Part shown: piece after piece, positions 3,619-21,257 of the stretch
Layout of the letters: each line of letters begins with the position of its first letter
Numbering within the stretch: position 1 is the stretch's first letter
Sequence record: OP172789
DNA length: 64,000 nucleotides
Strand: one strand, 5' to 3'
Origin: Escherichia phage ECO71P1
Translations under genes and position numbers: made by a program
Notes under the pieces: generated by a model
What the model was told of the DNA's origin: nothing
Databases searched by the model: none
What the model saw: only the letters and a program-made list of their open reading frames with translations

Positions 3619-4266
3619 TTATCCTGTGGCCTGCATATTGCGTACATACTTCTGCTCTAATGAATAGATGAAGTCGGCGACCGTCAATCCTTTGGTGTGC
3701 CACTCATACATTGTGTAGCCTGTATTCAGGAAATAGCCGCGCACCTTGTCCATTGCTTCAGATTCCTCCATGGAAGCCATCAGCGCGGCGACGTTATCAT
3801 AAGAAGGCACAAATCCCTTCTTGCGTAGCGCATTGCGCAAATCTTTAGTTCTGAATCCAATCTTGCACAGGTCATCACGGCCCGTTGAAGATGCAACCTT
3901 CGGCAGCGCAAGGAACTCTTTGAGGAACATTGAGATGTTCAAGTCGCCTGCGTCATCAAGCTTCTGGAGTCGGTTGCGACCGCGACCCTTGAATTCACTC
4001 GCACGAGGGTGAGCACCAAAGCAGTGCGCCCCTTCCAGTTTTGGGTCGATGATCATCAAATCTTTGCCTACGCGCAATTCAACATAGTAAAGGTATGTCT
4101 CATCGATAAGCTTCGTGCGCTTACAGTTGATGGAGTCCTTATCGTAACCAAAACCACGCAACACGGTTGAAATCATCCGGTTCATTTCTTCTCCGTGAAC
4201 GTCACTCTCTTTGTTCAGTTCACCAAGATGTTGAAAGAATTTAGCGATGTTGATTGCTTTATTCAT
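3619..4266 (-). CDS. hypothetical protein
   Basis: 215 aa ORF immediately upstream of the helicase gene, stop/start adjacent. Confidence 0.5.
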   Translation of the reverse strand: MNKAINIAKFFQHLGELNKESDVHGEEMNRMISTVLRGFGYDKDSINCKRTKLIDETYLYYVELRVGKDLMIIDPKLEGAHCFGAHPRASEFKGRGRNRLQKLDDAGDLNISMFLKEFLALPKVASSTGRDDLCKIGFRTKDLRNALRKKGFVPSYDNVAALMASMEESEAMDKVRGYFLNTGYTMYEWHTKGLTVADFIYSLEQKYVRNMQATG

Positions 4267-5936
4267 CAGAATTCATCCTTATCTCTTCCTAAAGAACGTT
4301 TGCGTTCAATAACCTTCTTCAAGAATTCAATATCTTCAGGGTCAGATTCATCGCGGATAAGATACGCCAAAATAGTCATCAGGTCAGAAATGTATTCCCC
4401 TGCTTCATTCTTAATCAGCGGCGTAAAGTAACCACGCTGGTTGCGATAGGTTGCAGGCTCAAATCCAAGCTTCGACATGTGCGGCGCAAGGGTACGTGAG
4501 AAAGGCGACTTGCCGCACTTAGCTCTGAAGCCCATAGCGATTGCACCACTAGTGATGTGCCAGCGTCCGCTGTGATGTCGGTCATAAGGCGCGGTGATGA
4601 CGACTTCAACAAGGTCGTTGTCGACCATCTCGTCACGGATAACGCCGCGAGCACGTTCCATTTCGTTCTTGCTGAACTCAGTAAGCATGCGAGACGTTTC
4701 ACCAACAAAAGCGTTGTAACCTGCTTCGCCGTGCTTCTCCATCCACGCAGCACACTCAGCCATCAACTGCCAAACATCTTCTTTCAAAGTGGAAAGGTCA
4801 GCTTGGAAGTCTTTCGACCAGTTCGGTTGCCCGTCCTTGTCTGCGAGTTGGCCAACAAAGATAGGATACACACGACGGTTGCCCGTATCGTCACGCTGCA
4901 TGCCTGCGTATTCGTTGCCGTCCATGATAGCAATCCACTGGCGCGGTTTAACCTGCGTATCTTCAAATTTGAAGTCCAGGTCATCTTCCGTCTTAGTCAG
5001 GAATGCTTTCATGTTTTCGATGTCGGCCTTTTTAAAGCCTGTCATCTCGCCAACGTTCGCGATAATTGAGCGACCCGTAATAGCTCGCAAGAACGGGTTG
5101 AAGTTCTGCGCGGCCAAGTTCAACGGAATCGGTGTTGCGTGGCGGTCGTTCATAATAGCTTCGCAAAGCAGCTTACTGAAATAACTCTTCCCTGCGTTCT
5201 GGCCGCCGATGAGCGCAATGGAGATTGGCGCTTGACAGCCAGGGTTGGTCAGGCGGTTATAGAGCGATAGCCAAAAATACACACCGATTTGTCGGTTTAA
5301 CTCTGTATCGAACGGTCGGAATAGCTCGATAAGGTATTTCTCAATGCGCGCAGTACCGTCCCATTCAGGCAGCTTCTTGTAGAAGAAGTCCATCAGGTCG
5401 TCGCGCTGATAACGCATGGCCCATTCCTTATAGGATTGAGCGACCTGACGTGAGTTTGGGTTGGACAGGCCTGCTGCGTCGACAGCGGCAACTATCTCTG
5501 TGACTTCCAACGTCCGGTCGGTGAATGTTTCTCCGCGATGGTCGACTAAGCGTCCACGAAAAGTATCTTTGTGAGGGAATGGGACAATGCCGCTTCCCTT
5601 ATCAAACAACGCGTCGAAAACCGCATAACGGTTCATGTCACTCGTCCGGTCCGCCTGAAGAACAAAATCATCTTTCGTCGGTTTGTAGTGAGGGAACTTG
5701 ATTACCTGAAGTGAGGCGAGCAAACGTGCTCTTTCAACCAAGTCTTCTTCACCGTAGCACTCCATGCGCTCTGCATCTTTCTCAACAGCCTTATGCTGGA
5801 GGCTGATTTTAGCTCTGGTGCCTTGCTGCTCTGCCGCTTGCATCTCTTCTGAAACACCAGCGTCTTGAATTTCGTCAAAGGTTGCACCAAATTCATCACC
5901 TGTATCCTCTGGAAGATTGTCATGTTCAATTGACAT
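4266..5936 (-). CDS. P-loop NTPase, putative replicative helicase (D5 / primase-C-terminal-like)
   Basis: Walker A-like IALIGGQNAGKSYFSKLL in 556 aa protein; strong AGGAGG RBS before ATG at 5936. Confidence 0.55.
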   Translation of the reverse strand: MSIEHDNLPEDTGDEFGATFDEIQDAGVSEEMQAAEQQGTRAKISLQHKAVEKDAERMECYGEEDLVERARLLASLQVIKFPHYKPTKDDFVLQADRTSDMNRYAVFDALFDKGSGIVPFPHKDTFRGRLVDHRGETFTDRTLEVTEIVAAVDAAGLSNPNSRQVAQSYKEWAMRYQRDDLMDFFYKKLPEWDGTARIEKYLIELFRPFDTELNRQIGVYFWLSLYNRLTNPGCQAPISIALIGGQNAGKSYFSKLLCEAIMNDRHATPIPLNLAAQNFNPFLRAITGRSIIANVGEMTGFKKADIENMKAFLTKTEDDLDFKFEDTQVKPRQWIAIMDGNEYAGMQRDDTGNRRVYPIFVGQLADKDGQPNWSKDFQADLSTLKEDVWQLMAECAAWMEKHGEAGYNAFVGETSRMLTEFSKNEMERARGVIRDEMVDNDLVEVVITAPYDRHHSGRWHITSGAIAMGFRAKCGKSPFSRTLAPHMSKLGFEPATYRNQRGYFTPLIKNEAGEYISDLMTILAYLIRDESDPEDIEFLKKVIERKRSLGRDKDEF

Positions 5937-6002
5937 TTAATCCTCCTGATACGGCTTTGTTATATTGTTGCATGGATATATCCTTTCAGGGTGCGGTAAA
6001 TA

Positions 6003-6022
6003 AACGCCAGAAATCTGGCGTT
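6003..6022 (-). terminator. putative rho-independent terminator for the minus-strand unit
   Basis: Hairpin AACGCCAGAAATCTGGCGTT; T-rich run follows on minus strand. Confidence 0.4.
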
Positions 6023-6072
6023 GTATATTAATATAGTAAAACTCAGTTTAAAGCAATATAACTGGTGAACTA

Positions 6073-6363
6073 TCAGCAAGGAAATTGGTCAGCGTATGCC
6101 TTTCTCAATTTGTTTACTGACTGAACAGAATGAAGGTATTGGCAATCGGTGAAGATGCGGCGCAAACAATCCATAGAAGACAGGTCATCGTTAGTAACCA
6201 CCAGAATCTCTTCCGAAGGGCAACCAGCTTCTTTGGCAATCTCATTAAGATTTGAGCCATTAATTTCTTCAACACGTTTCACCTCATCGATACCGTAAAC
6301 ATCAACGGCAACTTCGATGTCGTCATCGCTGATATTCTCACCATAAAGAATTACAATATTCAT
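6073..6363 (-). CDS. hypothetical acidic protein
   Basis: 96 aa ORF. Confidence 0.45.
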   Translation of the reverse strand: MNIVILYGENISDDDIEVAVDVYGIDEVKRVEEINGSNLNEIAKEAGCPSEEILVVTNDDLSSMDCLRRIFTDCQYLHSVQSVNKLRKAYADQFPC

Positions 6364-6464
6364 TTACTCACCCCTGCCAAATAATATGCCATATCCAATA
6401 CATATAATAGCCCCAGGATGATAACAAGGGAAATGATTAATGTGTATTTCTTTACGGCTTTCAT
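6360..6464 (-). CDS. small hydrophobic protein (about 34 aa, one predicted TM helix)
   Basis: Hand translation MKAVKKYTLIISLVIILGLLYVLDMAYYLAGVSK; stop overlaps next start (ATGA); below ORF-track size cut-off. Confidence 0.3.
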   Translation of the reverse strand: MKAVKKYTLIISLVIILGLLYVLDMAYYLAGVSK

Positions 6465-6482
6465 ATGTATCTATACCTAAAT

Positions 6483-6746
6483 TTACTGTTGAGGATCACC
6501 GATGGAGCCTGTCGCATCCCATTCAACGCGTGCTGAACGGTCTGCTGGTGGACAACCTTCTCCGGCGTAAAGCTCCACCACGCCTTCGTGAGAGCAGCAC
6601 TGGCACTCTACAAGGTCGCCGTCCTCCCAGGCACCTTCCTCTGCATTGCGATGCTGCCGCACCTTGATCACATCGCTTGCACAGTTAGGACAAGTCGAAA
6701 GACTGCTTGTGACGTTCCAAACAAACTCGTTGCGGAAAGCACCCAT
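6483..6746 (-). CDS. hypothetical protein with zinc-ribbon-like Cys pairs (CPNC...CQCC)
   Basis: Start trimmed to MGAFRNEF to abut upstream gene. Confidence 0.4.
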   Translation of the reverse strand: MGAFRNEFVWNVTSSLSTCPNCASDVIKVRQHRNAEEGAWEDGDLVECQCCSHEGVVELYAGEGCPPADRSARVEWDATGSIGDPQQ

Positions 6747-6747
6747 G

Positions 6748-7038
6748 CTACACCTCTTGATCTCGCTGTTGTTGAATCGCGGCTGCAGCTTCTTCAAAAT
6801 TCACTGGCTCAACGGTAAACGTTGCACTGACAGTGAAGTTGTTAATCGTCAGCAAAGTATTGAAACGCTCTGCATTCAGATTCATCGCCACGTGAGTCGA
6901 AACATTAAGGATTGCGCCAACAACTTCTTCAACCGCATAGCCTTTAAACAGAGGAAGAATTTCATTGACAAGCTTCAGCTCGTTCTCCACGCGAAGTTTT
7001 TGCGCTTCTTCAGTGGTCATCATTTTTGGTTCGTTCAT
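6748..7038 (-). CDS. hypothetical protein
   Basis: 96 aa ORF. Confidence 0.45.
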   Translation of the reverse strand: MNEPKMMTTEEAQKLRVENELKLVNEILPLFKGYAVEEVVGAILNVSTHVAMNLNAERFNTLLTINNFTVSATFTVEPVNFEEAAAAIQQQRDQEV

Positions 7039-7040
7039 TT

Positions 7041-7187
7041 TTATTCCTTAACAAATTCAGAGTAGTGTTTGGCCGCAGCCGATTGGTGGTGAGCCATAAC
7101 ACCTTCAAGGGTGGGAAGCTCTACGTGCTTAGGTTCTGACGAATTTAACAGACCTTCAAGCTCGATGTTCAATTCTTCGCTTTGCAT
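7041..7187 (-). CDS. small hypothetical protein (48 aa)
   Basis: Hand translation MQSEELNIELEGLL...; GAGGTG RBS before ATG; below ORF-track cut-off. Confidence 0.35.
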   Translation of the reverse strand: MQSEELNIELEGLLNSSEPKHVELPTLEGVMAHHQSAAAKHYSEFVKE

Positions 7188-7245
7188 AAATCACCTCTGC
7201 TTCAGTTCATAAAATGATTATAGTTGCTAGAAAAATAAAAGCAAA

Positions 7246-8328
7246 CTATTTTATGCCACCTGCGCGACGATTTATCATATCAAGTTGATTCTCAATATAA
7301 GGCATTACTACTGCTTCGACAAAAGCGGTCCATCCTTTCTTGCCTTCCCCTTTCCGGTGACAGTCGTGAGCGCAACCGAAAACGAATTCATGTTCAGCGC
7401 CAGGGATTGGGCCGCGAAAATAAGCGCCGTATGGGTCGCCGTTGGTGTGCTCTTCACCCCAAGGACAGATGATGCGGCATTTACCTGACATGTTTTCAAC
7501 CACATCGCCATCGGACCCTTCGCCCATCTTATTGCGCGCAAGGATTTGCTGGGCTATCTTATACCAAACAGCGTCATATTTGTATTCGTCAACGTCGATT
7601 TGAATTTCACGCTTTTGCGGCATAACGACGTGGAAACCGAAGGCTTGGCAAATCTCTTCGATTGTGTAGCGCAAAGAATAGTCTGCATGAACAAGTCGGC
7701 AGCGGAACGGGTCGCCGTTCTCATCGACATATTTATAGGGGCCGTCGTGAGTCACACGCTTATTGTTGATGCACCCAGGAACACGACCCACGCGTGTCAC
7801 ATCTTTAATCGTATTGTCGCCGCCCTTCTTGAGTACCATGTTTACGAAAGACCCAAGGAATGCTTTGAACTGAATAAGATGGTCAATCGGTTCTTTAAAG
7901 AAGTACCACAGCTGATGGTTGTTCGGTGAAGTCTCAACAATGACGGTGGGCTTCAGGCGCTCGAAAAAGAATTCCAAATCTAAATCGCCCTTTGACCCTT
8001 TACCGTGTCCGATGTCGTCGACCATCATCGCCATGCCATGACCGAAAGCCGATTCCGTGCGCCAGTATCGCATCTCGCCTGTCTTTGGGTTGGGAGACTT
8101 ACGCATTGAACTTATGCAGGCGTAACCGTTCTGATGTTGCATCAGCGGCTTGCCAAGCTTCCAAGGCTTAGGCCAGAAGCTGCTGTTAATCTTTTTGCCG
8201 CGCTCGTCGGTCTGCACCGTTGCTTCAGGCGCAAACACTGTCATGACGCGTTCATCTTCTGGAATGCCTCTTTGGAGTTCCGTCAAAAACTCTTCGATTA
8301 TTTTTGCTTCTTCTCTTAAACTAGCCAT
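7246..8328 (-). CDS. putative primase-like replication protein (AEP/prim-pol-like DxD motif plus C-terminal Cys/His cluster)
   Basis: MMVDDIGHG acidic motif, C-terminal CPWGEEH...GCAHDCH; GAAGGAAAG RBS; sits beside helicase gene. Confidence 0.4.
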   Translation of the reverse strand: MASLREEAKIIEEFLTELQRGIPEDERVMTVFAPEATVQTDERGKKINSSFWPKPWKLGKPLMQHQNGYACISSMRKSPNPKTGEMRYWRTESAFGHGMAMMVDDIGHGKGSKGDLDLEFFFERLKPTVIVETSPNNHQLWYFFKEPIDHLIQFKAFLGSFVNMVLKKGGDNTIKDVTRVGRVPGCINNKRVTHDGPYKYVDENGDPFRCRLVHADYSLRYTIEEICQAFGFHVVMPQKREIQIDVDEYKYDAVWYKIAQQILARNKMGEGSDGDVVENMSGKCRIICPWGEEHTNGDPYGAYFRGPIPGAEHEFVFGCAHDCHRKGEGKKGWTAFVEAVVMPYIENQLDMINRRAGGIK

Positions 8329-8488
8329 CTTTCTTTCCTTCGGTGATCAATACCTGCAGTATAATATTGAGTGATACAAAGTCAACAATATTTACCATTT
8401 AGTTCACAATTTCGATTTACTTTGCTTTATACTATATCTGCAATTATACTATCAGAAAATATTTCCGCACTAACAAAGGTCGCCTGAA
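8329..8488. promoter_or_regulatory. divergent intergenic region with three TGC-N-TATA(A/C)TAT boxes, candidate host-RNAP promoters
   Basis: Switch point between minus-strand and plus-strand gene blocks; repeated -10-like hexamers. Confidence 0.3.
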
Positions 8489-8815
8489 ATGAACGAAAAA
8501 GATACGAAGCAACGAGAACGTGCAACACACGTCGGCATCGTTGAGTCCTTCCTTAATACAAGACTGAATTCAAGTCTTACAATTATGCGATTCCTGGGTC
8601 AACCAGACAGAATCAAATTCATCTTTGCCGCAAATCCGGTATCGCTTTACATCCCTGTTGAATCCATGGCGTACCTGGTGCGCGACGAGCAAGGGTGGAA
8701 GATACCAAACACGACTGTTTTCTTCAGTCACGTTGACGGTGAGATGTTTGAACGAAAAGAAGATTGCCATTTTATTCCAGTATATCTGGACCTTGAAAGC
8801 GTAGTGGAGTTATAA
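8489..8815 (+). CDS. hypothetical protein
   Basis: 108 aa ORF, first gene of plus-strand block. Confidence 0.45.
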   Translation: MNEKDTKQRERATHVGIVESFLNTRLNSSLTIMRFLGQPDRIKFIFAANPVSLYIPVESMAYLVRDEQGWKIPNTTVFFSHVDGEMFERKEDCHFIPVYLDLESVVEL

Positions 8816-9999
8816 TGAACATTCCAGAATTTAATAATGAGCCAGTGATTCAGTTCAACGCGCAACAGATTGATGCCATCGAAAAGGCCGTTGCATGGTA
8901 CAAGCGATTGCAGGACGGTAAAACGACGAAGCGCGTGTTTTTCATCGCTGGCTATGCAGGAACAGGTAAAACCTCTATTGCGCGTGAGATTGTGCGCCGT
9001 TGTGTCGGTGAGTACGGTGCCATTTATATTGCGCCGACCGGAAAGGCAGCCAGCCGATTGAAGCAGAAAGGGTGTCGTGGCGCGAAGACACTTCACCAGT
9101 TCATCTATAACGTGCGCGGCGTAAATGACGACAATGAGCCAATATTTTCGAGAAAGTCAAAGCTGGACGAAAAGCCGCATCTTGTAGTCCTTGATGAAGC
9201 TTCAATGGTTGGCGAGTGGGATACAGAGCGCCTTCTTGATCACCGCATCCCTGTGCTGGCATTAGGCGACATTGGACAAGTCCCTCCGGTAAAAGCCGCC
9301 GCCTACTTTACTGAAGATGCCGTTGACGTACTGTTAACCGAAATCATGCGGCAAGGGAAAGAGTCCAACATAATCCGCGCTTCCTTCTTCGTGCGACAGG
9401 GCAACCGACTTCCTCCGCGTGAATACGATGACGTCAAGGTGTTGGCTGAATCGCCGCGCGTTACCGCACTGAAGAAATTCATGGGCGAAGATGATCAGAT
9501 TATTTGTTCATATAACAGCACCAAAGATAAATGGAATTCATTATTGCGGCAAGTGAGCGGACGTATAACGCCAATGCCAGGAATCGGTGAGAAAGTTATT
9601 TGCACATTCAACCAACACGGTCCAGGATTCTGTAATGGCGAGCAAGGGATTGTTATTAGTTATGAGCCAGTACCGGACTTTGAAAGGGATGAAGATGAGT
9701 CCAATGAAATAATGTATGTAAATTTGCGCTCGCTTACCGATGGCAAAGATATAAAGGTCAAGATAAATCCTCTTTCCTTCTCTACTGATCAGGAAGTGCG
9801 CAAAGAGGCTCAACGCGCTGTTGGAGGAATGGACTATGGCTATGTCATAACGGTGCACAAATCGCAAGGCAGCGAGTGGGATAATGTGTGCGTTCTGGAA
9901 GAAATCTTGCGCGGCGTTCCGTATGCCAAGATGATGTACACAGCCATCACCCGTGCTAAGAAGAATCTGACTGTGTACCGTGATTTGAAAGCGCGTTAA
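8815..9999 (+). CDS. Dda/RecD-like superfamily 1 DNA helicase
   Basis: Walker A GYAGTGKTS, Walker B VLDEASMV, C-terminal YVITVHKSQGSEWD motif. Confidence 0.75.
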   Translation: MNIPEFNNEPVIQFNAQQIDAIEKAVAWYKRLQDGKTTKRVFFIAGYAGTGKTSIAREIVRRCVGEYGAIYIAPTGKAASRLKQKGCRGAKTLHQFIYNVRGVNDDNEPIFSRKSKLDEKPHLVVLDEASMVGEWDTERLLDHRIPVLALGDIGQVPPVKAAAYFTEDAVDVLLTEIMRQGKESNIIRASFFVRQGNRLPPREYDDVKVLAESPRVTALKKFMGEDDQIICSYNSTKDKWNSLLRQVSGRITPMPGIGEKVICTFNQHGPGFCNGEQGIVISYEPVPDFERDEDESNEIMYVNLRSLTDGKDIKVKINPLSFSTDQEVRKEAQRAVGGMDYGYVITVHKSQGSEWDNVCVLEEILRGVPYAKMMYTAITRAKKNLTVYRDLKAR

Positions 10000-10152: not shown

Positions 10153-10998
10153 GTGAATATGGCCGAAGCAATCAAAGTATTATCTAAAGAAGAAAAACAA
10201 GCAGCTGCAGCAGAACGTCGTCGCGTGGCTGAAGAAAAACGCCTGGCTAAAAAGAAAGAAGCCGAAGAAAAACGCCAGAAGCGTGAGCAGGAAAAACAAG
10301 CCAAGCGTGAAGAAGCTGCACTGAAACGCAAGCAGGCCGCTGATGAGAAAGCACAGAAACGTGCTGAAGAAGCAGCGAAGAAAGCCAAAGAGCGTGCAGA
10401 AAAAGCTGCTGCTAAGAAAGCAGAGCGTGAAGCCGCTAAAGCAGCAAAAGAAATCGAAAAGGCAAAGGCTAAAGAAGAAGCCAAGCGCCTGAAAGCTGAA
10501 CAAGCTGCTGCTAAGAAAGCAGAGCGTGATCAAGCCCGTGCTGCAGCGAAGGCCGAAAAAGAGAAGGCCAAAGAAGAAGCTAAAGCGAAACGCAAGGCAG
10601 AGCGTGAAGCTGCTAAGATTGCGGCTAAAGAAGCTGCAGAAAAGCAGAAAGAACAGCGTAAGAAAGAAGCTGAAGAACGTCGCAAAGCCATCGCAGAACG
10701 TAAGGCTGCTAAAAAGGCAAACGGTCAGCGTCGTGCAAAAGCAACCCACTTCATCTACACTGGCAATGGCCTGAGCCAGCCGCAAGAGCATTCCACCCGT
10801 GGACGCGTTCTGGCGGCGATCAAAGAAGGCGAAGTTGGCGTGGCGCAGTCTATCGATGAGCTGGGCGAAAAAGTTAAAGATCAACTGTTTGGCGCTTCCG
10901 TTCGCTCCTACCTGAGCAAGCTGGAAGAGATGGGCCACATCGAGTTTGTCGATGTTGAATCCAACGAAGATGCCGAAGACGGTGATCAAGCGGAATAA
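10153..10998 (+). CDS. Lys/Ala/Glu-rich charged repeat protein with C-terminal globular domain
   Basis: About 180 aa of KAE low-complexity repeats (AAKKAERE-type), then about 90 aa non-repetitive tail; AAGGA RBS. Confidence 0.6.
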   Translation: MNMAEAIKVLSKEEKQAAAAERRRVAEEKRLAKKKEAEEKRQKREQEKQAKREEAALKRKQAADEKAQKRAEEAAKKAKERAEKAAAKKAEREAAKAAKEIEKAKAKEEAKRLKAEQAAAKKAERDQARAAAKAEKEKAKEEAKAKRKAEREAAKIAAKEAAEKQKEQRKKEAEERRKAIAERKAAKKANGQRRAKATHFIYTGNGLSQPQEHSTRGRVLAAIKEGEVGVAQSIDELGEKVKDQLFGASVRSYLSKLEEMGHIEFVDVESNEDAEDGDQAE

Positions 10999-15888: not shown

Positions 15889-16431
15889 GTGTTATTTCTT
15901 CCTTATGACTTCGAAACAACCGGATTAACCGTGCACCCGAAAGCGCCGCTTGGGATGCAGCCGCGCCCTATTGAATTTGCAGGCCTGTTGACGGACGGCA
16001 AAGAGATTCTTGAAACGTTCGAGTTCATAATCAACCCTGAAATCGTGATTGAAGAAATCATCACAAAGATTACCGGATTAACAAATGAAGACCTTGAGTG
16101 CAATCCGCCATTCATCAATTTTGTTCCGCAGCTAAAAGAAATCTTCAAGAAGACTGATGCCACTATCGCGCACAACCATGCGTTCGATAAGAACATTCTT
16201 GATTATGCACTACAGCGCGAAGGACTTACACTTGATGATGTTAATTTCCCAGAAATAAACATCTGTACAGTTGAGCAAACCTTGCCTATTTTTGGCCGAA
16301 GAGTTAAGCTTCAAGAGCTGTATGAATTATATTTCGGAAAATATGAACAGAAGCACCGTGCATTAGACGACGTAATATTACTGCACAAAGTCTGCCAACA
16401 AATTGGCGTATATGACATCTGGAGTAAATAA
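15889..16431 (+). CDS. DnaQ-like 3'-5' proofreading exonuclease
   Basis: Exo motifs DFETTG, HNHAFD, HRALDD; GTG start after AGGAGG. Confidence 0.8.
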   Translation: MLFLPYDFETTGLTVHPKAPLGMQPRPIEFAGLLTDGKEILETFEFIINPEIVIEEIITKITGLTNEDLECNPPFINFVPQLKEIFKKTDATIAHNHAFDKNILDYALQREGLTLDDVNFPEINICTVEQTLPIFGRRVKLQELYELYFGKYEQKHRALDDVILLHKVCQQIGVYDIWSK

Positions 16432-19328
16432 TGTTTCCACAATTGAGAGTTCGCAGCGGTTACACGTTCAAAGAAGTATATGGACGGCATCCTGAAATTA
16501 TAGCACGGCTCAAAGAGTTGGGCTGCGAAGTCGCGGCATTAGTTGATAACAATACATGGGGTCACGTTCGCTGGGAAAAGGAATGTCAGAAGAATGATAT
16601 CAAGCCTATGTTCGGCATGGAAATTCCAATCATCGACCCTGATGCGGACCCGAAAAAGGGATTCAAACCGAAGGCTTGGATATTGGCGCTTGACCTGAAA
16701 TCTTTTTACAACGCTACGACACTTGCAACACAGCGCGGCGGACTGACCCGTGCAGAGTTCGGGGCGCTGGATGGCGTCGTTAAATTCTGTGGCGGGGCTG
16801 TGGAGTTGCTGCGACCAGAGGACTACGATTATATAGACGTCAACCCATCATCGTTCCTTTTGGCCAAGCGCCAGGTATTGGCTCACCGCAACAACGGAAG
16901 GCCGCTGGTTTTAACCGGATACAACCACATGCCTTCACCTGAGCACGTTGACTTTGCTTATGCTTGGGAAGTGCGCGACACGGTCAAGCCGCACTGCATC
17001 GTTGACGCGGAAGACTTGTGCAAACAGCTTAAAGGAATCCTGACCGAAGATGAGTTGAATCAAGCAACGGCCAATGCGGTTGATATTGCAAACGGAATCG
17101 TTGGGCTTGGCCTGAAGCTGCGCAAGGCACCGATTATCCACCTTGCTGGTGACATGGTAAAGCTTGCTCGTGAGGGTATGGAGTACCGCCTTAAGGCAGG
17201 TCACATCAAAGAATGGACTCAGGAATACGAGGACCGATTCAACGAAGAGATTCACCAGATTCAGCTGAAAGACTTTGACTCATACTTTCTGGTGGTAGCG
17301 GACCTTGTACGATTCGCAAAAACAAAAATGCTTGTCGGACCCGCTCGCGGCTCATCGGCTGGTTCACTGGTTTGTTATTGCCTCGGCATCACGGAAGTTG
17401 ACCCAATCCCGTATAAGCTGCTGTTCGCCCGATTCATCGACGTAAGCCGCGCCGACCTTCCTGATATTGATATTGACTTTGAGGATACCAAACGCTATAT
17501 GGTGTTTGATTACCTTAAAGAAAAATACGGCGAAATGAACGTTGCAAAGCTTGGCAACATCAACACTCTTAAGGCCAACTCAGTAATGGCTCAGGTTGGT
17601 AAGAAATTCAACATTGGATATCACGAAACGGCCAACATTAAAAACGCATTGCTTGAATACTCATCTGGTGACGCCCGTTATGGTCACGGCCTGGAGGATA
17701 CCTTTGCAACAACTACCACGGGTCAAGAGTTTGTGGCGAAATATCCTGACGCCGCGCGTTGCATGGGTGACCTTGAGATTCACCCGTCCCACACAGGTGT
17801 TCACGCAGCGGGAATCATCGTGTGTAATGATCCAATCTCTGATTACTGTACTGTAACGGCGGAAGGGATTGCGCAAATTGATAAGCCTGACAGCGAATAC
17901 CTTAACCTTTTGAAGCTTGATGCATTGGGTCTTCGCACCCTCGGAATCATTTCTGATACTGGCGTGATAGACGCTGAAACGCTGTACGGAATCAAGCTTG
18001 ATGATCAAAGCGTCCTTGACATCCTTAACGAAAACAAGATGTCAGGAATATTCCAGTTTGAAGGCGACGCTGTACGCTCAGTAACCAACTTTGTGCACGT
18101 TGATAACTTTAACAAAATCGATAACCTGACAGCACTTGGCAGACCTGGCCCGTTGTCATCCGGTATGGCCCAGAAATACATCGAACGCGCGGCAGGACGT
18201 GCGCCGATTGAGTACGACGTGCCGCAGCTTGAGCCGTACTTAAAAGAGACTTACGGCGTGTTTCTTTACCAAGAGCAAATCATGGCCGTGGTTAAAGAGA
18301 TTGGTTCATTCGACTGGGCGAAAACATCAGCTGTACGTAAGGCAATGTCAGGTCGTAAGGGTGAAGAATACTTTAACAAGCTTGGCGAAGACTTCGTTGC
18401 AGGCGCAATAAATAACGGCGTACCGGAAGCGGATGCAAGAAAGCTTTGGCAGGCGATGGCGACGTTCGGGTCATGGGGCTTTAACAAGTCACACTCCGTG
18501 TCATACGCGGTCGTGACTTACTGGACCTTGTGGCTTAAACGACACTACCCGCTGGAATTTGCCGCTGCTTGCTTACGCGCTGCTAAGGACGAAGACCAGA
18601 CGATTGCGATATTACGTGAACTTGCAAAGGAAGGCGTGGATTATGTGCCAATCGACCCTGATCACTCTTCAATGAACTGGACCATCGCTAACGGAAAGCT
18701 AATCGGCGGCATCATGAACGCTAAAGGGTACGGAATGGTAAAAGCGATGAAGTACATCGAAGCACGTGAAGCCGGAACCTTAACGCAAAAACAAAAGGAC
18801 GCATTGGCCAATGCTGAAGTCAAATACGGCGACCTTACAGAGATGCACACCAAGTTCGGTTGGGCGTATAATGACCCCTATCTGATTGGCGTTACTTCCG
18901 GTGCTTCAATACGCCAGATGAAGGAAGTCGGTGATGACGAGCGTGCAATAGTGATCGGCAAGCTGACCAAGAAAGTGCTGGCTGACGAGAACGAAGCAAC
19001 ACGCATCCGTAAACGTCTTGAGCGCGGCATTTATACAAAGCACGGCAAACTTAAAAAGGGTCTTCAAGCTGATGGTCGCTACGCAGAGTTTGACCAGTAT
19101 GGAAACAAGCTTGAGACTCAGTTCATTGACCTTATGTGCAAGGACGATTCGACCGACTCGCCAATGCGCTTCAGGATTCGCCCAGAGAAGTTCCAGAAAT
19201 ACGGTAAATACATTGCAGAGAACGTCGGGAACGGCGCATTCTTCCTGATGAAAGGCCGCAAGCTTGAAGGTATTGACATGTTTATCGTCGACGTGATCAA
19301 ACAGGTGTATCCAGATGGCAACAAATAA
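16431..19328 (+). CDS. DnaE-type (Pol III alpha / family C) DNA polymerase catalytic subunit
   Basis: PARGSSAGSLVCYCLGITEVDP...PDIDIDF and GFNKSHSVSYAVVTYWTLWLK match hallmark DnaE segments. Confidence 0.85.
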   Translation: MFPQLRVRSGYTFKEVYGRHPEIIARLKELGCEVAALVDNNTWGHVRWEKECQKNDIKPMFGMEIPIIDPDADPKKGFKPKAWILALDLKSFYNATTLATQRGGLTRAEFGALDGVVKFCGGAVELLRPEDYDYIDVNPSSFLLAKRQVLAHRNNGRPLVLTGYNHMPSPEHVDFAYAWEVRDTVKPHCIVDAEDLCKQLKGILTEDELNQATANAVDIANGIVGLGLKLRKAPIIHLAGDMVKLAREGMEYRLKAGHIKEWTQEYEDRFNEEIHQIQLKDFDSYFLVVADLVRFAKTKMLVGPARGSSAGSLVCYCLGITEVDPIPYKLLFARFIDVSRADLPDIDIDFEDTKRYMVFDYLKEKYGEMNVAKLGNINTLKANSVMAQVGKKFNIGYHETANIKNALLEYSSGDARYGHGLEDTFATTTTGQEFVAKYPDAARCMGDLEIHPSHTGVHAAGIIVCNDPISDYCTVTAEGIAQIDKPDSEYLNLLKLDALGLRTLGIISDTGVIDAETLYGIKLDDQSVLDILNENKMSGIFQFEGDAVRSVTNFVHVDNFNKIDNLTALGRPGPLSSGMAQKYIERAAGRAPIEYDVPQLEPYLKETYGVFLYQEQIMAVVKEIGSFDWAKTSAVRKAMSGRKGEEYFNKLGEDFVAGAINNGVPEADARKLWQAMATFGSWGFNKSHSVSYAVVTYWTLWLKRHYPLEFAAACLRAAKDEDQTIAILRELAKEGVDYVPIDPDHSSMNWTIANGKLIGGIMNAKGYGMVKAMKYIEAREAGTLTQKQKDALANAEVKYGDLTEMHTKFGWAYNDPYLIGVTSGASIRQMKEVGDDERAIVIGKLTKKVLADENEATRIRKRLERGIYTKHGKLKKGLQADGRYAEFDQYGNKLETQFIDLMCKDDSTDSPMRFRIRPEKFQKYGKYIAENVGNGAFFLMKGRKLEGIDMFIVDVIKQVYPDGNK

Positions 19329-19737
19329 CCGTGAACAGAAATACATATTCGTGCCTTTGAAGAAGCATTCAGAATCAATATTGAAGCTTCAACGAATCGA
19401 ATCGATGACTGGTGATGGCGTGCCGGACGTAATCGGCACCAACCGGAAAGGTCGCGGCTTTTGGCTTGAAATGAAGTTCTTTGAATCGTGGCCTGCAAGG
19501 GCCAACACTGCACCTTTCAGAAATGCATTTGAGAAAGGTCAGTGCAGCTTTCTTTCTTCGTGGAATGATTGGAAATACCCATCATTTGTTTTGCTTAAAG
19601 TCGATTCTGAGAAGATGTTTTATTTAGTCCACCCTTCGATTGAATTAAAGCGTTATAATATTGCAGACGTTCAACGTGAGATAATCGTGAAGGGAACTAT
19701 TCATCACATCATCAAGTATTTAGAGGAATTGTCATGA
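19315..19737 (+). CDS. VRR-NUC family (PD-(D/E)xK) nuclease
   Basis: GVPDV...EMK motif; directly upstream of SNF2 ATPase. Confidence 0.5.
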   Translation: MATNNREQKYIFVPLKKHSESILKLQRIESMTGDGVPDVIGTNRKGRGFWLEMKFFESWPARANTAPFRNAFEKGQCSFLSSWNDWKYPSFVLLKVDSEKMFYLVHPSIELKRYNIADVQREIIVKGTIHHIIKYLEELS

Positions 19738-21257
19738 AAACACAAGGGATGCGCCACCAGCTTCTGGCGCTTGATAAAGCAGGCCGCAGAAAATACTTTG
19801 CCTATTTCATGGAACAGGGTCTTGGTAAAACTTGGACCGCTTTGGCAGAGTTTGAAAAGCACTTCGCCGCTGGCGCGTTCGATGCCATGGTCGTCATCGC
19901 TCCAAACGGTGTCCACTCAAACTGGATTCGTCGTGAAGCACCAGAACACCTTTCCATCAAGTGGATTGGGCACTACTGGCGCGGCAATGACAAGATGAAG
20001 ACTAAAAAGGGCAAGGCGCTTTGGGAGAAGATGTTTGCTGATCACTACCCTGAAGGCGAAGTGCCTGCGCGCATCTTCTCATTCAACATTGATACCGTCA
20101 ACACACCAGTCGGTTATCAACACATAGAGTCGGTCTTGAAGAAATACCGCTGCCTGATGATCATCGACGAATCAACGCGCATCAAGAATAACACAGCCAA
20201 ACGCTCCATCAAGGTTGTGGAATTGGGACGGCTGGCAAAGGCCCGTCGAATCCTTTCCGGTACGCCGTTGCCGCGCTCGCCTGCGGATATTTACATGCAA
20301 TACCACTTCCTTGAAGCAGGATTGCTCGGCACCAAATCATTCCGTGCCTTTAACTCTGAATTCACGGTGCTACTTGAAGCGCACGACCCAGAGATGCAAG
20401 CCATCCTCAAGAAAATCGGCGGCAATGGCTATGGGATTCCGCAAGTGCCGCGCAAAGACCAGTTTGGCCGACCGATGTACAAGAACCTTGACAAGCTTAT
20501 CCGGCTGATGGAACCGCACTATTTTCGTGCAACAAAAGCAGAATACTTGCCTGACCTTCCAGAGAAGGTGTATAAGTTTATCGACTTCGAGTTGTCGCCT
20601 AAACAACGCGATGTTTACGATGAACTCAAGAATGAGTACAACTATTTGATGGAATACAAGGGCGAAGAAGAAAACGTCAAGTTTGAGATGATCGCATCGC
20701 GCACCAAGATGAAGCAGGTTACATCCGGCTTTGTCAAGGTGTATGATGAGATGGTCTACATGGAAGACAACCCACGCTTCACGGCCTTTAAGGATTATGT
20801 GGAAGGGGTGTTGGAAGACGACCCAGAGCGCAAATTCATCGTTTGGGCCATCTTTAAGGAAGAGATGAACCAGATTAAGGAATGGCTTGAGTCTGAAGGC
20901 GTGGTCACTGGTGTATACAACGGTGAAACATCAAAAGAGCAGCGCGAGTTCTTGATTGATGACTTCCAGAAAAACACAGTCGCGAATGGTGGAACACAGG
21001 TATTGGTTTGCCACGCTGCAGCGGCAGGCATCGGCATCACACTTACCGCCGCTGACTTGGCAATCTATTATTCTTGCAACTATGACAATGAGTTGCGCAA
21101 GCAATCCGAAGACCGAAATCACCGCATCGGCACCAAATCAAGCGTGTTGTATGTTGATTTTATTGGTGTTGATACCATCGACGAAGAAATTCAGCGTTCA
21201 CTCAGTATGAAGTCAATGCTTGCTGATCACATCCTCGACGGCAAAAAGATGAATTAA
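19734..21257 (+). CDS. SNF2-family helicase-like ATPase
   Basis: GLGKT Walker A, IIDEST DExx box, C-terminal helicase-like region. Confidence 0.8.
   Translation: MKTQGMRHQLLALDKAGRRKYFAYFMEQGLGKTWTALAEFEKHFAAGAFDAMVVIAPNGVHSNWIRREAPEHLSIKWIGHYWRGNDKMKTKKGKALWEKMFADHYPEGEVPARIFSFNIDTVNTPVGYQHIESVLKKYRCLMIIDESTRIKNNTAKRSIKVVELGRLAKARRILSGTPLPRSPADIYMQYHFLEAGLLGTKSFRAFNSEFTVLLEAHDPEMQAILKKIGGNGYGIPQVPRKDQFGRPMYKNLDKLIRLMEPHYFRATKAEYLPDLPEKVYKFIDFELSPKQRDVYDELKNEYNYLMEYKGEEENVKFEMIASRTKMKQVTSGFVKVYDEMVYMEDNPRFTAFKDYVEGVLEDDPERKFIVWAIFKEEMNQIKEWLESEGVVTGVYNGETSKEQREFLIDDFQKNTVANGGTQVLVCHAAAAGIGITLTAADLAIYYSCNYDNELRKQSEDRNHRIGTKSSVLYVDFIGVDTIDEEIQRSLSMKSMLADHILDGKKMN

Follow-up and report, generated by a model that had tools for sequence, protein, structure and literature searches.

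RepB'-like primase and VapE-family helicase encoded by separate genes, with five small reading frames between them, in Escherichia phage ECO71P1

Do two large genes of Escherichia phage ECO71P1 that lie 1.3 kb apart encode the two halves of one primosome, and what is to be made of the five small open reading frames (ORFs) between them? The genes stand in a 64,000-nucleotide stretch of sequence record OP172789 (the window, numbered from its first letter), in which an earlier note, made from the sequence alone, had paired a 360-amino acid (aa) ORF at 7246–8328 with a 556-aa ORF at 4266–5936 as primase and cognate helicase. Both ORFs were recovered exactly, on the minus strand, as two separate reading frames with five same-strand ORFs between them rather than as a fusion, just as that note had described. 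We consider it highly probable that the two large ORFs each supply one half of a phage primosome. The window comes from a Wifcevirus-type Escherichia coli myophage, and its region 4000–8500 is 98.7% identical to vB_EcoM-Ro157lw and 93–98% identical to WFH, FEC19, ECML-117 and the BASEL phage Bas100. Bas100 (93% nucleotide identity) served as the reference for counting substitutions by codon position. Third codon positions took 91 of 94 substitutions in the 360-aa gene and 70 of 77 in the 556-aa gene, well beyond chance, and both large genes are under very strong purifying selection.

Profile searches placed the 360-aa protein in a primase family, which was the outcome on which its identification had been made to depend. 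Residues 40–237 match Pfam RepB_primase (PF16793) with an E-value of 1.6e-36 (126.4 bits against a cutoff of 24.3; profile positions 4–181 of 186), phrog_4861 ('DNA primase') matches the protein end to end, and PF16793 is carried by 120 of 120 primase homologs among the matches listed. The homologs are stand-alone proteins, about 360 aa long, and come from Wifcevirus, Kylevirus, Pbunavirus (294 Pseudomonas phage records) and Myosmarvirus as well as from Burkholderia, Xanthomonas, Erwinia and Luteibacter phages. The predicted fold of the protein is that of an archaeo-eukaryotic primase (AEP) or primase-polymerase (PrimPol), and a fold search returned the S-2L PrimPol as best match and RepB' of plasmid RSF1010 as second best, with LigD/Prim-PolC repair polymerases also among the top matches. 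Family, PHROG and fold thus agree with the primase-polymerase type proposed for it.

The catalytic domain could be delimited to about aa 25–237 (7618–8256, minus strand) from invariant columns, the RepB' alignment and secondary structure. Among 25 homologs with identities as low as 52%, no variation was seen at D104-D105, E132-T-S-P-x-N-x-Q139, G169-G-D171, D176, R179, R182 and N188-N-K-R191 or, in the C-terminal part, at C288, P289, H294, C319, H321 and D322. The acidic pair D104/D105 (nucleotides 8014–8019, minus strand) belongs to the MMVDDIG motif at aa 100–106, which the earlier note had singled out; with D171 of the GGD motif it would make up the metal ligands of motifs I and III, and we take all three, from their spacing, to be the probable equivalents of the RepB' catalytic aspartates. 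Motif II reads ETSPNNHQ (aa 132–139), and its ETSPxNYQxW block aligns with RepB' VVETSPKNYQAW (ETSPKNYQ). According to published work (PMC5862659), the RepB'/PolpTN2/PrimQH branch within the PrimPol-PV1 supergroup is marked by a glutamine in place of the usual motif II histidine, with an arginine motif downstream. The phage protein has both: Q139 in motif II and the Arg-h and Asn residues of motif IV (R179, R182, N188 and N189, followed by K190) are invariant. These data support assignment of the 360-aa protein as an AEP primase of the RepB'/PrimPol-PV1 kind, for which primer synthesis is predicted.

What follows the catalytic domain differs from RepB'. After a long helix (aa 246–265) comes a small beta-sheet bearing a Cys/His cluster that reads CPWGEEHT...GCAHDCH (aa 288–324), and then a long C-terminal helix (aa 333–356). 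The cluster noticed earlier is real, but it forms a separate module behind the AEP domain and is no part of the catalytic core. This predicted zinc-binding module spans about aa 283–325 (7354–7482, minus strand), with C288, H294, C319 and H321 as probable ligands and C323/H324 close by. The C-terminal 123 aa matched nothing in Pfam at E≤10, no sequence or fold match was found to the zinc-binding domains of DnaG (CHC2), T7 or T4 primases, and the protein does not carry the C-terminal helix-bundle (PriCT-1) domain of RepB' proper (PMC4434180). The module stands in the position of that helix bundle, the place that is occupied by 'PriCT-1/2 or ZnBD', the latter a zinc-binding domain, in published multidomain relatives (PMC5862659). 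Because of this shared position with the PriCT or helix-bundle domains of RepB' and other AEPs, the module and its flanking helices presumably hold the template or the initiating nucleotide.

The 556-aa protein was assigned to the VapE/VirE family of superfamily 3 (SF3) helicases by Pfam, PHROG and PDB matches. Residues 189–407 match VapE-like_dom (PF05272; E = 1.6e-28, 100.1 bits, cutoff 25), with a weak match to DUF5906; PF05272 is carried by 120 of 120 helicase homologs among the matches listed; and phrog_4630 covers the full length, the C-terminal halves of several 750–850 aa 'primase' and 'helicase' PHROGs being matched as well. The closest solved relative is 7pds_A (E = 4e-11), aligned from Walker A to the GNRR motif. 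This structure is a DNA complex of Rep1 from Staphylococcus aureus pathogenicity island (SaPI) 1, a hexameric, self-loading SF3 helicase (PMC9371898), so that the phage protein is homologous to an experimentally verified hexameric helicase. The P-loop noted previously is the Walker A motif GGQNAGKS (G244–S251; nucleotides 5184–5207), within an AAA+ core at aa 189–407 (4716–5372), both on the minus strand and both placed by the 7pds alignment, the core also by the Pfam envelope. IANVGE297, N341 and R354/R355 likewise align with SaPI1 Rep1, and from this alignment E297, N341 and R354–R355 would be Walker B, sensor 1 and the arginine finger. Split and fused homologs alike keep G244, K250, R354 and R355 without exception. 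A comparison with D5 helicase families had been proposed; a helicase was indeed found, though of VapE/VirE type and not D5-type in the strict sense, no D5 family being matched in the Pfam search. Residues 1–189 and 386–556 had no Pfam match at E≤10, and no winged-helix family was matched.

RefSeq and pharokka label the 360-aa and the 556-aa protein alike 'DNA primase', in the second case the name borne by phrog_4630, and some records call homologs of the second helicase or 'primase superfamily helicase'. For the 556-aa protein 'DNA primase' is a mislabel, which probably arose from the frequent occurrence of the domain in fused primase-helicases. The protein ends in a flexible tail (...GRDKDEF) whose last residue is Phe556 (4269–4271, minus strand). 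Comparison of homologs revealed a free C-terminal Phe in 116 of 120 helicase homologs (37–99% identity), mostly at the end of a Gly-rich or acidic stretch (...GGGF, ...EDF), as well as in the fused proteins P0126, P0132, P0133 and P0140; the primase homologs have no such bias. The tails of T7 gp4, T7 gp2.5 and the E. coli single-stranded DNA-binding protein (SSB) dock onto polymerase or partner proteins. By analogy, the Phe tail may be a docking peptide for the phage polymerase described below or for host SSB-partner proteins.

Evidence that the two proteins work together came from their relatives. In a profile search with the primase covering 1.8 billion representatives, the whole primase, zinc module included, formed the N-terminus of 850–1045 aa proteins in close relatives. 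The C-terminal partner is VapE/DUF5906 in P0121, P0126, P0132, P0133 and P0140, DUF927 in P0134, RepA-like AAA_25 in P0143 and DUF3987 in P0207, and a Vibrio phage encodes an 899-aa RepB_primase plus DUF5906 protein. Chains that unite both halves in close relatives measure 850–960 aa. In P0121 (946 aa; RepB_primase plus VapE) the primase profile matched with an E-value of 9e-131, and its C-terminal half shares 37% identity with the helicase of the window (E = 5e-79). P0121 is encoded at L009 8001–10841 on a 16-kb JGI metagenome contig (Ga0669119_0008466) alongside a phage integrase and a Pbunavirus E217_Gp32-like structural gene; because these two genes accompany it, the contig suggests a temperate relative of an otherwise virulent lineage.

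Where the two genes are separate, their spacing varies widely. Xanthomonas phage Carpasina has no gene between primase and helicase, only an 11-nucleotide gap; Pbunavirus has one, a 61-aa ORF; the window has five; Pantoea phage Kyle has seven or eight; and for Serratia phage WR01 the count is at least 14, taken from the primase onward without reaching the helicase. From the fused and adjacent relatives and the variable spacing we conclude that the five small genes are a lineage-specific insertion between ancestrally adjacent or fused genes, and that a well-known module is seen here in one of its ordinary states, fission or adjacency. Co-occurrence of an AEP with an SF3 helicase, the primase gene lying upstream of or fused to the helicase gene, is a general rule in double-stranded DNA viruses (PMC4889955), and the cognate primase of SaPI1 Rep1 is encoded just upstream of it (PMC9371898). 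The fused homologs and the adjacency in Carpasina support the cognate primase-helicase relationship that had been put forward. In addition, the longest contigs given for primase homologs and for helicase homologs agree exactly in length, as would be expected if both came from the same genomes.

The window also contains a replication module of mixed lineage, all on the plus strand: a DnaE-type polymerase resembling Pol III alpha (16431–19328), an epsilon-like RNase_T exonuclease (15889–16431), a SNF2-type helicase (19734–21257) preceded by a 140-aa ORF that is also annotated as a helicase in Bas100, and a Dda-like superfamily 1 (SF1) helicase (8815–9999). A working model can be drawn from these parts. 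Like its homolog SaPI1 Rep1, the 556-aa protein would assemble into a hexameric ring and unwind the fork, and primers would be made by the AEP primase docked on this ring. In the primase active site, D104, D105 and D171 would hold the catalytic metals, Gln139 of motif II together with R182 and N188–N189 of motif IV would bind the nucleotide, and the zinc module would take over the role of PriCT in holding the template or the initiating nucleotide. Elongation would fall to the DnaE-type Pol III alpha and the epsilon-like exonuclease, and the small ORFs are accessory genes gathered in a permissive gap rather than parts of the machine.

Several observations weigh against this model. Direct similarity to RepB' was marginal in a PDB sequence search (E = 0.39 with the single sequence, 0.014 with the profile), which is why the fold search was needed to settle the family of the primase. 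The zinc module matched neither the known primase accessory domains nor any other known family, and for that reason the role given to it above is a guess. Searches of the literature turned up no biochemical work on this family of phage primases. The additional Dda-like SF1 and SNF2 helicases of the phage are further candidates for the fork helicase. Finally, a terminator-like hairpin, AACGCCAG-ATTT-CTGGCGTT followed by TATTTACC (5995–6022, hairpin 6003–6022, minus strand), lies between the small-ORF cluster and the helicase gene, and because it separates them primase and helicase may not be co-transcribed. The hairpin was recognized by visual inspection, and a terminator is annotated at the homologous position in WFH; a scan for consensus promoters and terminators, whose counts were not above the shuffled expectation, missed it.

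Three alternative readings bear on these points, and the context makes each of them less likely than a primosome made of the two proteins. The one that survives best makes the 360-aa protein, on the pattern of RSF1010 RepB', an origin-specific initiator primase acting at one or two hairpin sites for the leading strand only, with no general lagging-strand priming. The Pfam family was founded on RepB', which is strictly specific for ssiA/ssiB (PMC4434180) and is the second-best structural match, and even the best match, the S-2L PrimPol, shows no priming on generic templates (PMC8065100). However, the RepB' helix-bundle domain is replaced here by the zinc module, and tight coupling and frequent fusion to a replicative-type helicase is the pattern of a fork primase (PMC4889955). 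Moreover, neither repeated nor hairpin initiation sites were found near the genes; a search there for iterons or origin-like repeats returned only short, chance-like two-copy repeats. We regard this reading as unlikely, and it is not fully exclusive of the primosome.

Alternatively, the 556-aa VapE-like protein might be an origin-binding initiator or loader ATPase, unwinding being left to the Dda-like, SNF2 or host DnaB helicase. The VapE/VirE family is poorly characterised (PMC5862659), the replication region contains two more helicase genes, and SaPI Rep proteins are initiators as well (PMC9371898), yet the nearest relative of known structure, SaPI1 Rep1, is a genuine hexameric helicase that translocates (PMC9371898), the Walker A motif and the R354/R355 pair are invariant, and fusion to a primase is typical of replicative helicases (PMC4889955), all of which makes this reading quite improbable. 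Least probable of all, with only a slim chance in our estimation, is that the AEP protein serves mainly as a PrimPol for repair, restart or translesion synthesis: the S-2L PrimPol and LigD/Prim-PolC repair polymerases are among the top fold matches and AEPs are functionally diverse (PMC4538821), but a Pol III alpha-like polymerase and an exonuclease are encoded by the phage itself, no DnaG-type primase was seen in the inspected annotated Bas100 positions 20000–68486, and the gene is universally conserved next to or fused with the helicase gene across the lineage.

Returning to the primosome and the gap within it, we examined the five small ORFs, all on the minus strand, in order from the primase gene. 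The first (48 aa, 7041–7187) is annotated in WFH and Bas100 and occurs only in Wifcevirus among the loci compared; it has no Pfam or PHROG match and is not clearly coding, with substitutions of [6,2,7] by codon position. The second (96 aa, 6748–7038) also lacks a Pfam or PHROG family match, and 40 of its 52 substitutions fall at position 3. The third (87 aa, 6483–6746) is Cys-rich and zinc-ribbon-like, matching phrog_4446 (E = 4.9e-10) and, weakly, Pfam Zn_Ribbon_YjdM; 22 of its 26 substitutions fall at position 3, and Pantoea phage Kyle has a weak homolog. A TTG at 6797 would extend it, but a good Shine-Dalgarno sequence favours a start at the ATG at 6746. The fourth (34 aa, 6360–6464) is hydrophobic (MKAVKKYTLIISLVIILGLLYVLDMAYYLAGVSK), looks like a single-pass membrane peptide, and shares an ATGA stop/start overlap with the fifth; it is annotated in the Bas100 record only, and its substitutions are too few for the codon-position count. 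The fifth (96 aa, 6073–6363) is acidic, lies immediately upstream of the helicase unit, and has a 48%-identical homolog at the same position in Kyle (L005 8152–8442, E = 9e-24), with weaker or too few substitution data. A clear coding signature is thus present in two of the five, the second and the third. None has a homolog in the Pbunavirus, Carpasina or Serratia loci, the fifth and, weakly, the third being matched in Kyle only. Small proteins of this junction, among them the zinc-ribbon protein and the putative 34-aa membrane peptide, could be host-takeover or anti-defence factors.

Annotations of the gap differ in their gene counts: RefSeq WFH lists four genes, one of them apparently on the wrong strand, and Bas100 lists six. 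The gene concerned is WFH gp074, called on the plus strand at a position homologous to window 6440–6667, where it overlaps the minus-strand ORF at 6483–6746. In the comparison with Bas100, 13 of 16 substitutions fall at codon position 2 of the gp074 frame, which also acquired a stop codon. The minus-strand 87-aa ORF, by contrast, has both its substitutions concentrated at position 3 and a PHROG match, and gp074 was probably called on the wrong strand.

Flanking features were recorded at either end of the locus. The divergent intergenic region 8329–8488, upstream of the primase gene, contains a sigma-70-like promoter candidate, TTGACT-16-TATACT (8358–8385, minus strand; 10 of 12 matches), which counts for little because sites of this kind are no more numerous in the region than shuffling leads one to expect. 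At the other end, a 215-aa ORF (3619–4266, minus strand) shares its first base with the end of the helicase stop codon, an overlap that suggests translational coupling; it has a 30%-identical homolog at the same position in Kyle, no homolog in the Pbunavirus or Carpasina loci and no Pfam or PHROG family match. Beside the Dda-like helicase gene, a 281-aa protein (10153–10998, plus strand) without a Pfam match begins with about 190 residues of near-pure Lys/Glu/Ala/Arg low-complexity sequence, probably a coiled-coil. The Pbunavirus, Kyle and Serratia loci each have an unannotated gene of similar size beside the Dda-like helicase, and the likeness noted is one of size and position.

As to what these results mean, Wifcevirus and Pbunavirus-type phages appear to run a mixed replisome that combines an archaeo-eukaryotic-type primase and a viral SF3 helicase with a bacterial-type Pol III alpha/epsilon. 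Pbunavirus-type phages are widely used in therapy. The immediate consequence hardly goes beyond annotation, in that the 556-aa protein should be named a helicase and not a primase. The terminal Phe and the unclassified zinc module offer handles for studying replisome assembly, which may in turn be relevant to the report that Wifcevirus phages replicate unusually fast (PMC11990801). A bolder proposal would make the zinc module a new type of primase accessory domain that replaces PriCT or the helix bundle, the Phe tail of the helicase a docking peptide, and the primase-helicase junction a hot-spot for accessory genes, possibly encoding host-takeover or anti-defence proteins. No description of the zinc module, the terminal Phe or the junction hot-spot was found in the literature searched, and we advance the three together only tentatively, thinking it rather doubtful that all of them hold.

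Comparison with characterised systems shows how much of this arrangement is familiar. RSF1010 RepB' (PDB 3H20/3H25), the founder of PF16793, shares the ETSPxNYQxW block with Gln for the usual AEP His and is likewise a stand-alone protein in which a long helix joins the catalytic domain to a small C-terminal domain. At about 16–17% sequence identity, the two differ in that RepB' has a PriCT-1 helix bundle and no zinc (PMC4434180) where the phage primase has a Cys/His zinc module and a terminal helix, and RepB' is plasmid-borne, specific for ssi sites and partnered by the RepA helicase of SF4 type. The cyanophage S-2L PrimPol (PDB 6ZP9) contains the same two modules, its C-terminal half being a VirE-family SF3 helicase (PMC8065100), but it is a single 737-aa chain with PriCT-2 between them, where ECO71P1 has two genes and a zinc module in that position; it is also proposed to be the only polymerase of its phage, whereas a Pol III alpha-like enzyme is encoded in the window. 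The poxvirus D5/E5 and phage P4 gp-alpha proteins differ in being fused and in carrying D5_N/D5-type helicases, in contrast to the two ORFs and VapE domain of the window, and P4 gp-alpha uses a DnaG-type primase rather than an AEP.

The SaPIs offer a parallel for the split itself: Pri and Rep1 are separate in SaPI1 and fused as PriRep5 in SaPI5 (PMC9371898), the same dichotomy that we observed among the phage relatives. They are, however, Gram-positive pathogenicity islands rather than lytic phages; SaPI1 Rep1 (477 aa) binds iterons through a C-terminal winged helix, and their origin sits downstream of rep, whereas our searches gave no winged-helix match in the 556-aa protein and no iterons or origin-like repeats near the two genes. 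The PrimQH proteins (PMC5862659) have a similar domain content, consisting of an AEP with Gln/His in motif II and Arg in motif IV, a PriCT or zinc-binding domain, a VirE, DUF927, DUF3987 or RepA helicase, and a winged helix, and precisely these helicase partners recur in the fused relatives that our search returned. Nearly all PrimQH proteins are single multidomain proteins of integrated elements, unlike the two genes of a virulent myophage lineage. With the AEP-ZnBD-VirE architecture described by Kazlauskas et al. in 2016 and 2018 (for the latter, PMC5862659) and the alternation of split and fused forms by the work on SaPIs (PMC9371898), the ECO71P1 module was correctly read as a separately encoded primase and helicase, and it is an already known, ordinary and widespread one.

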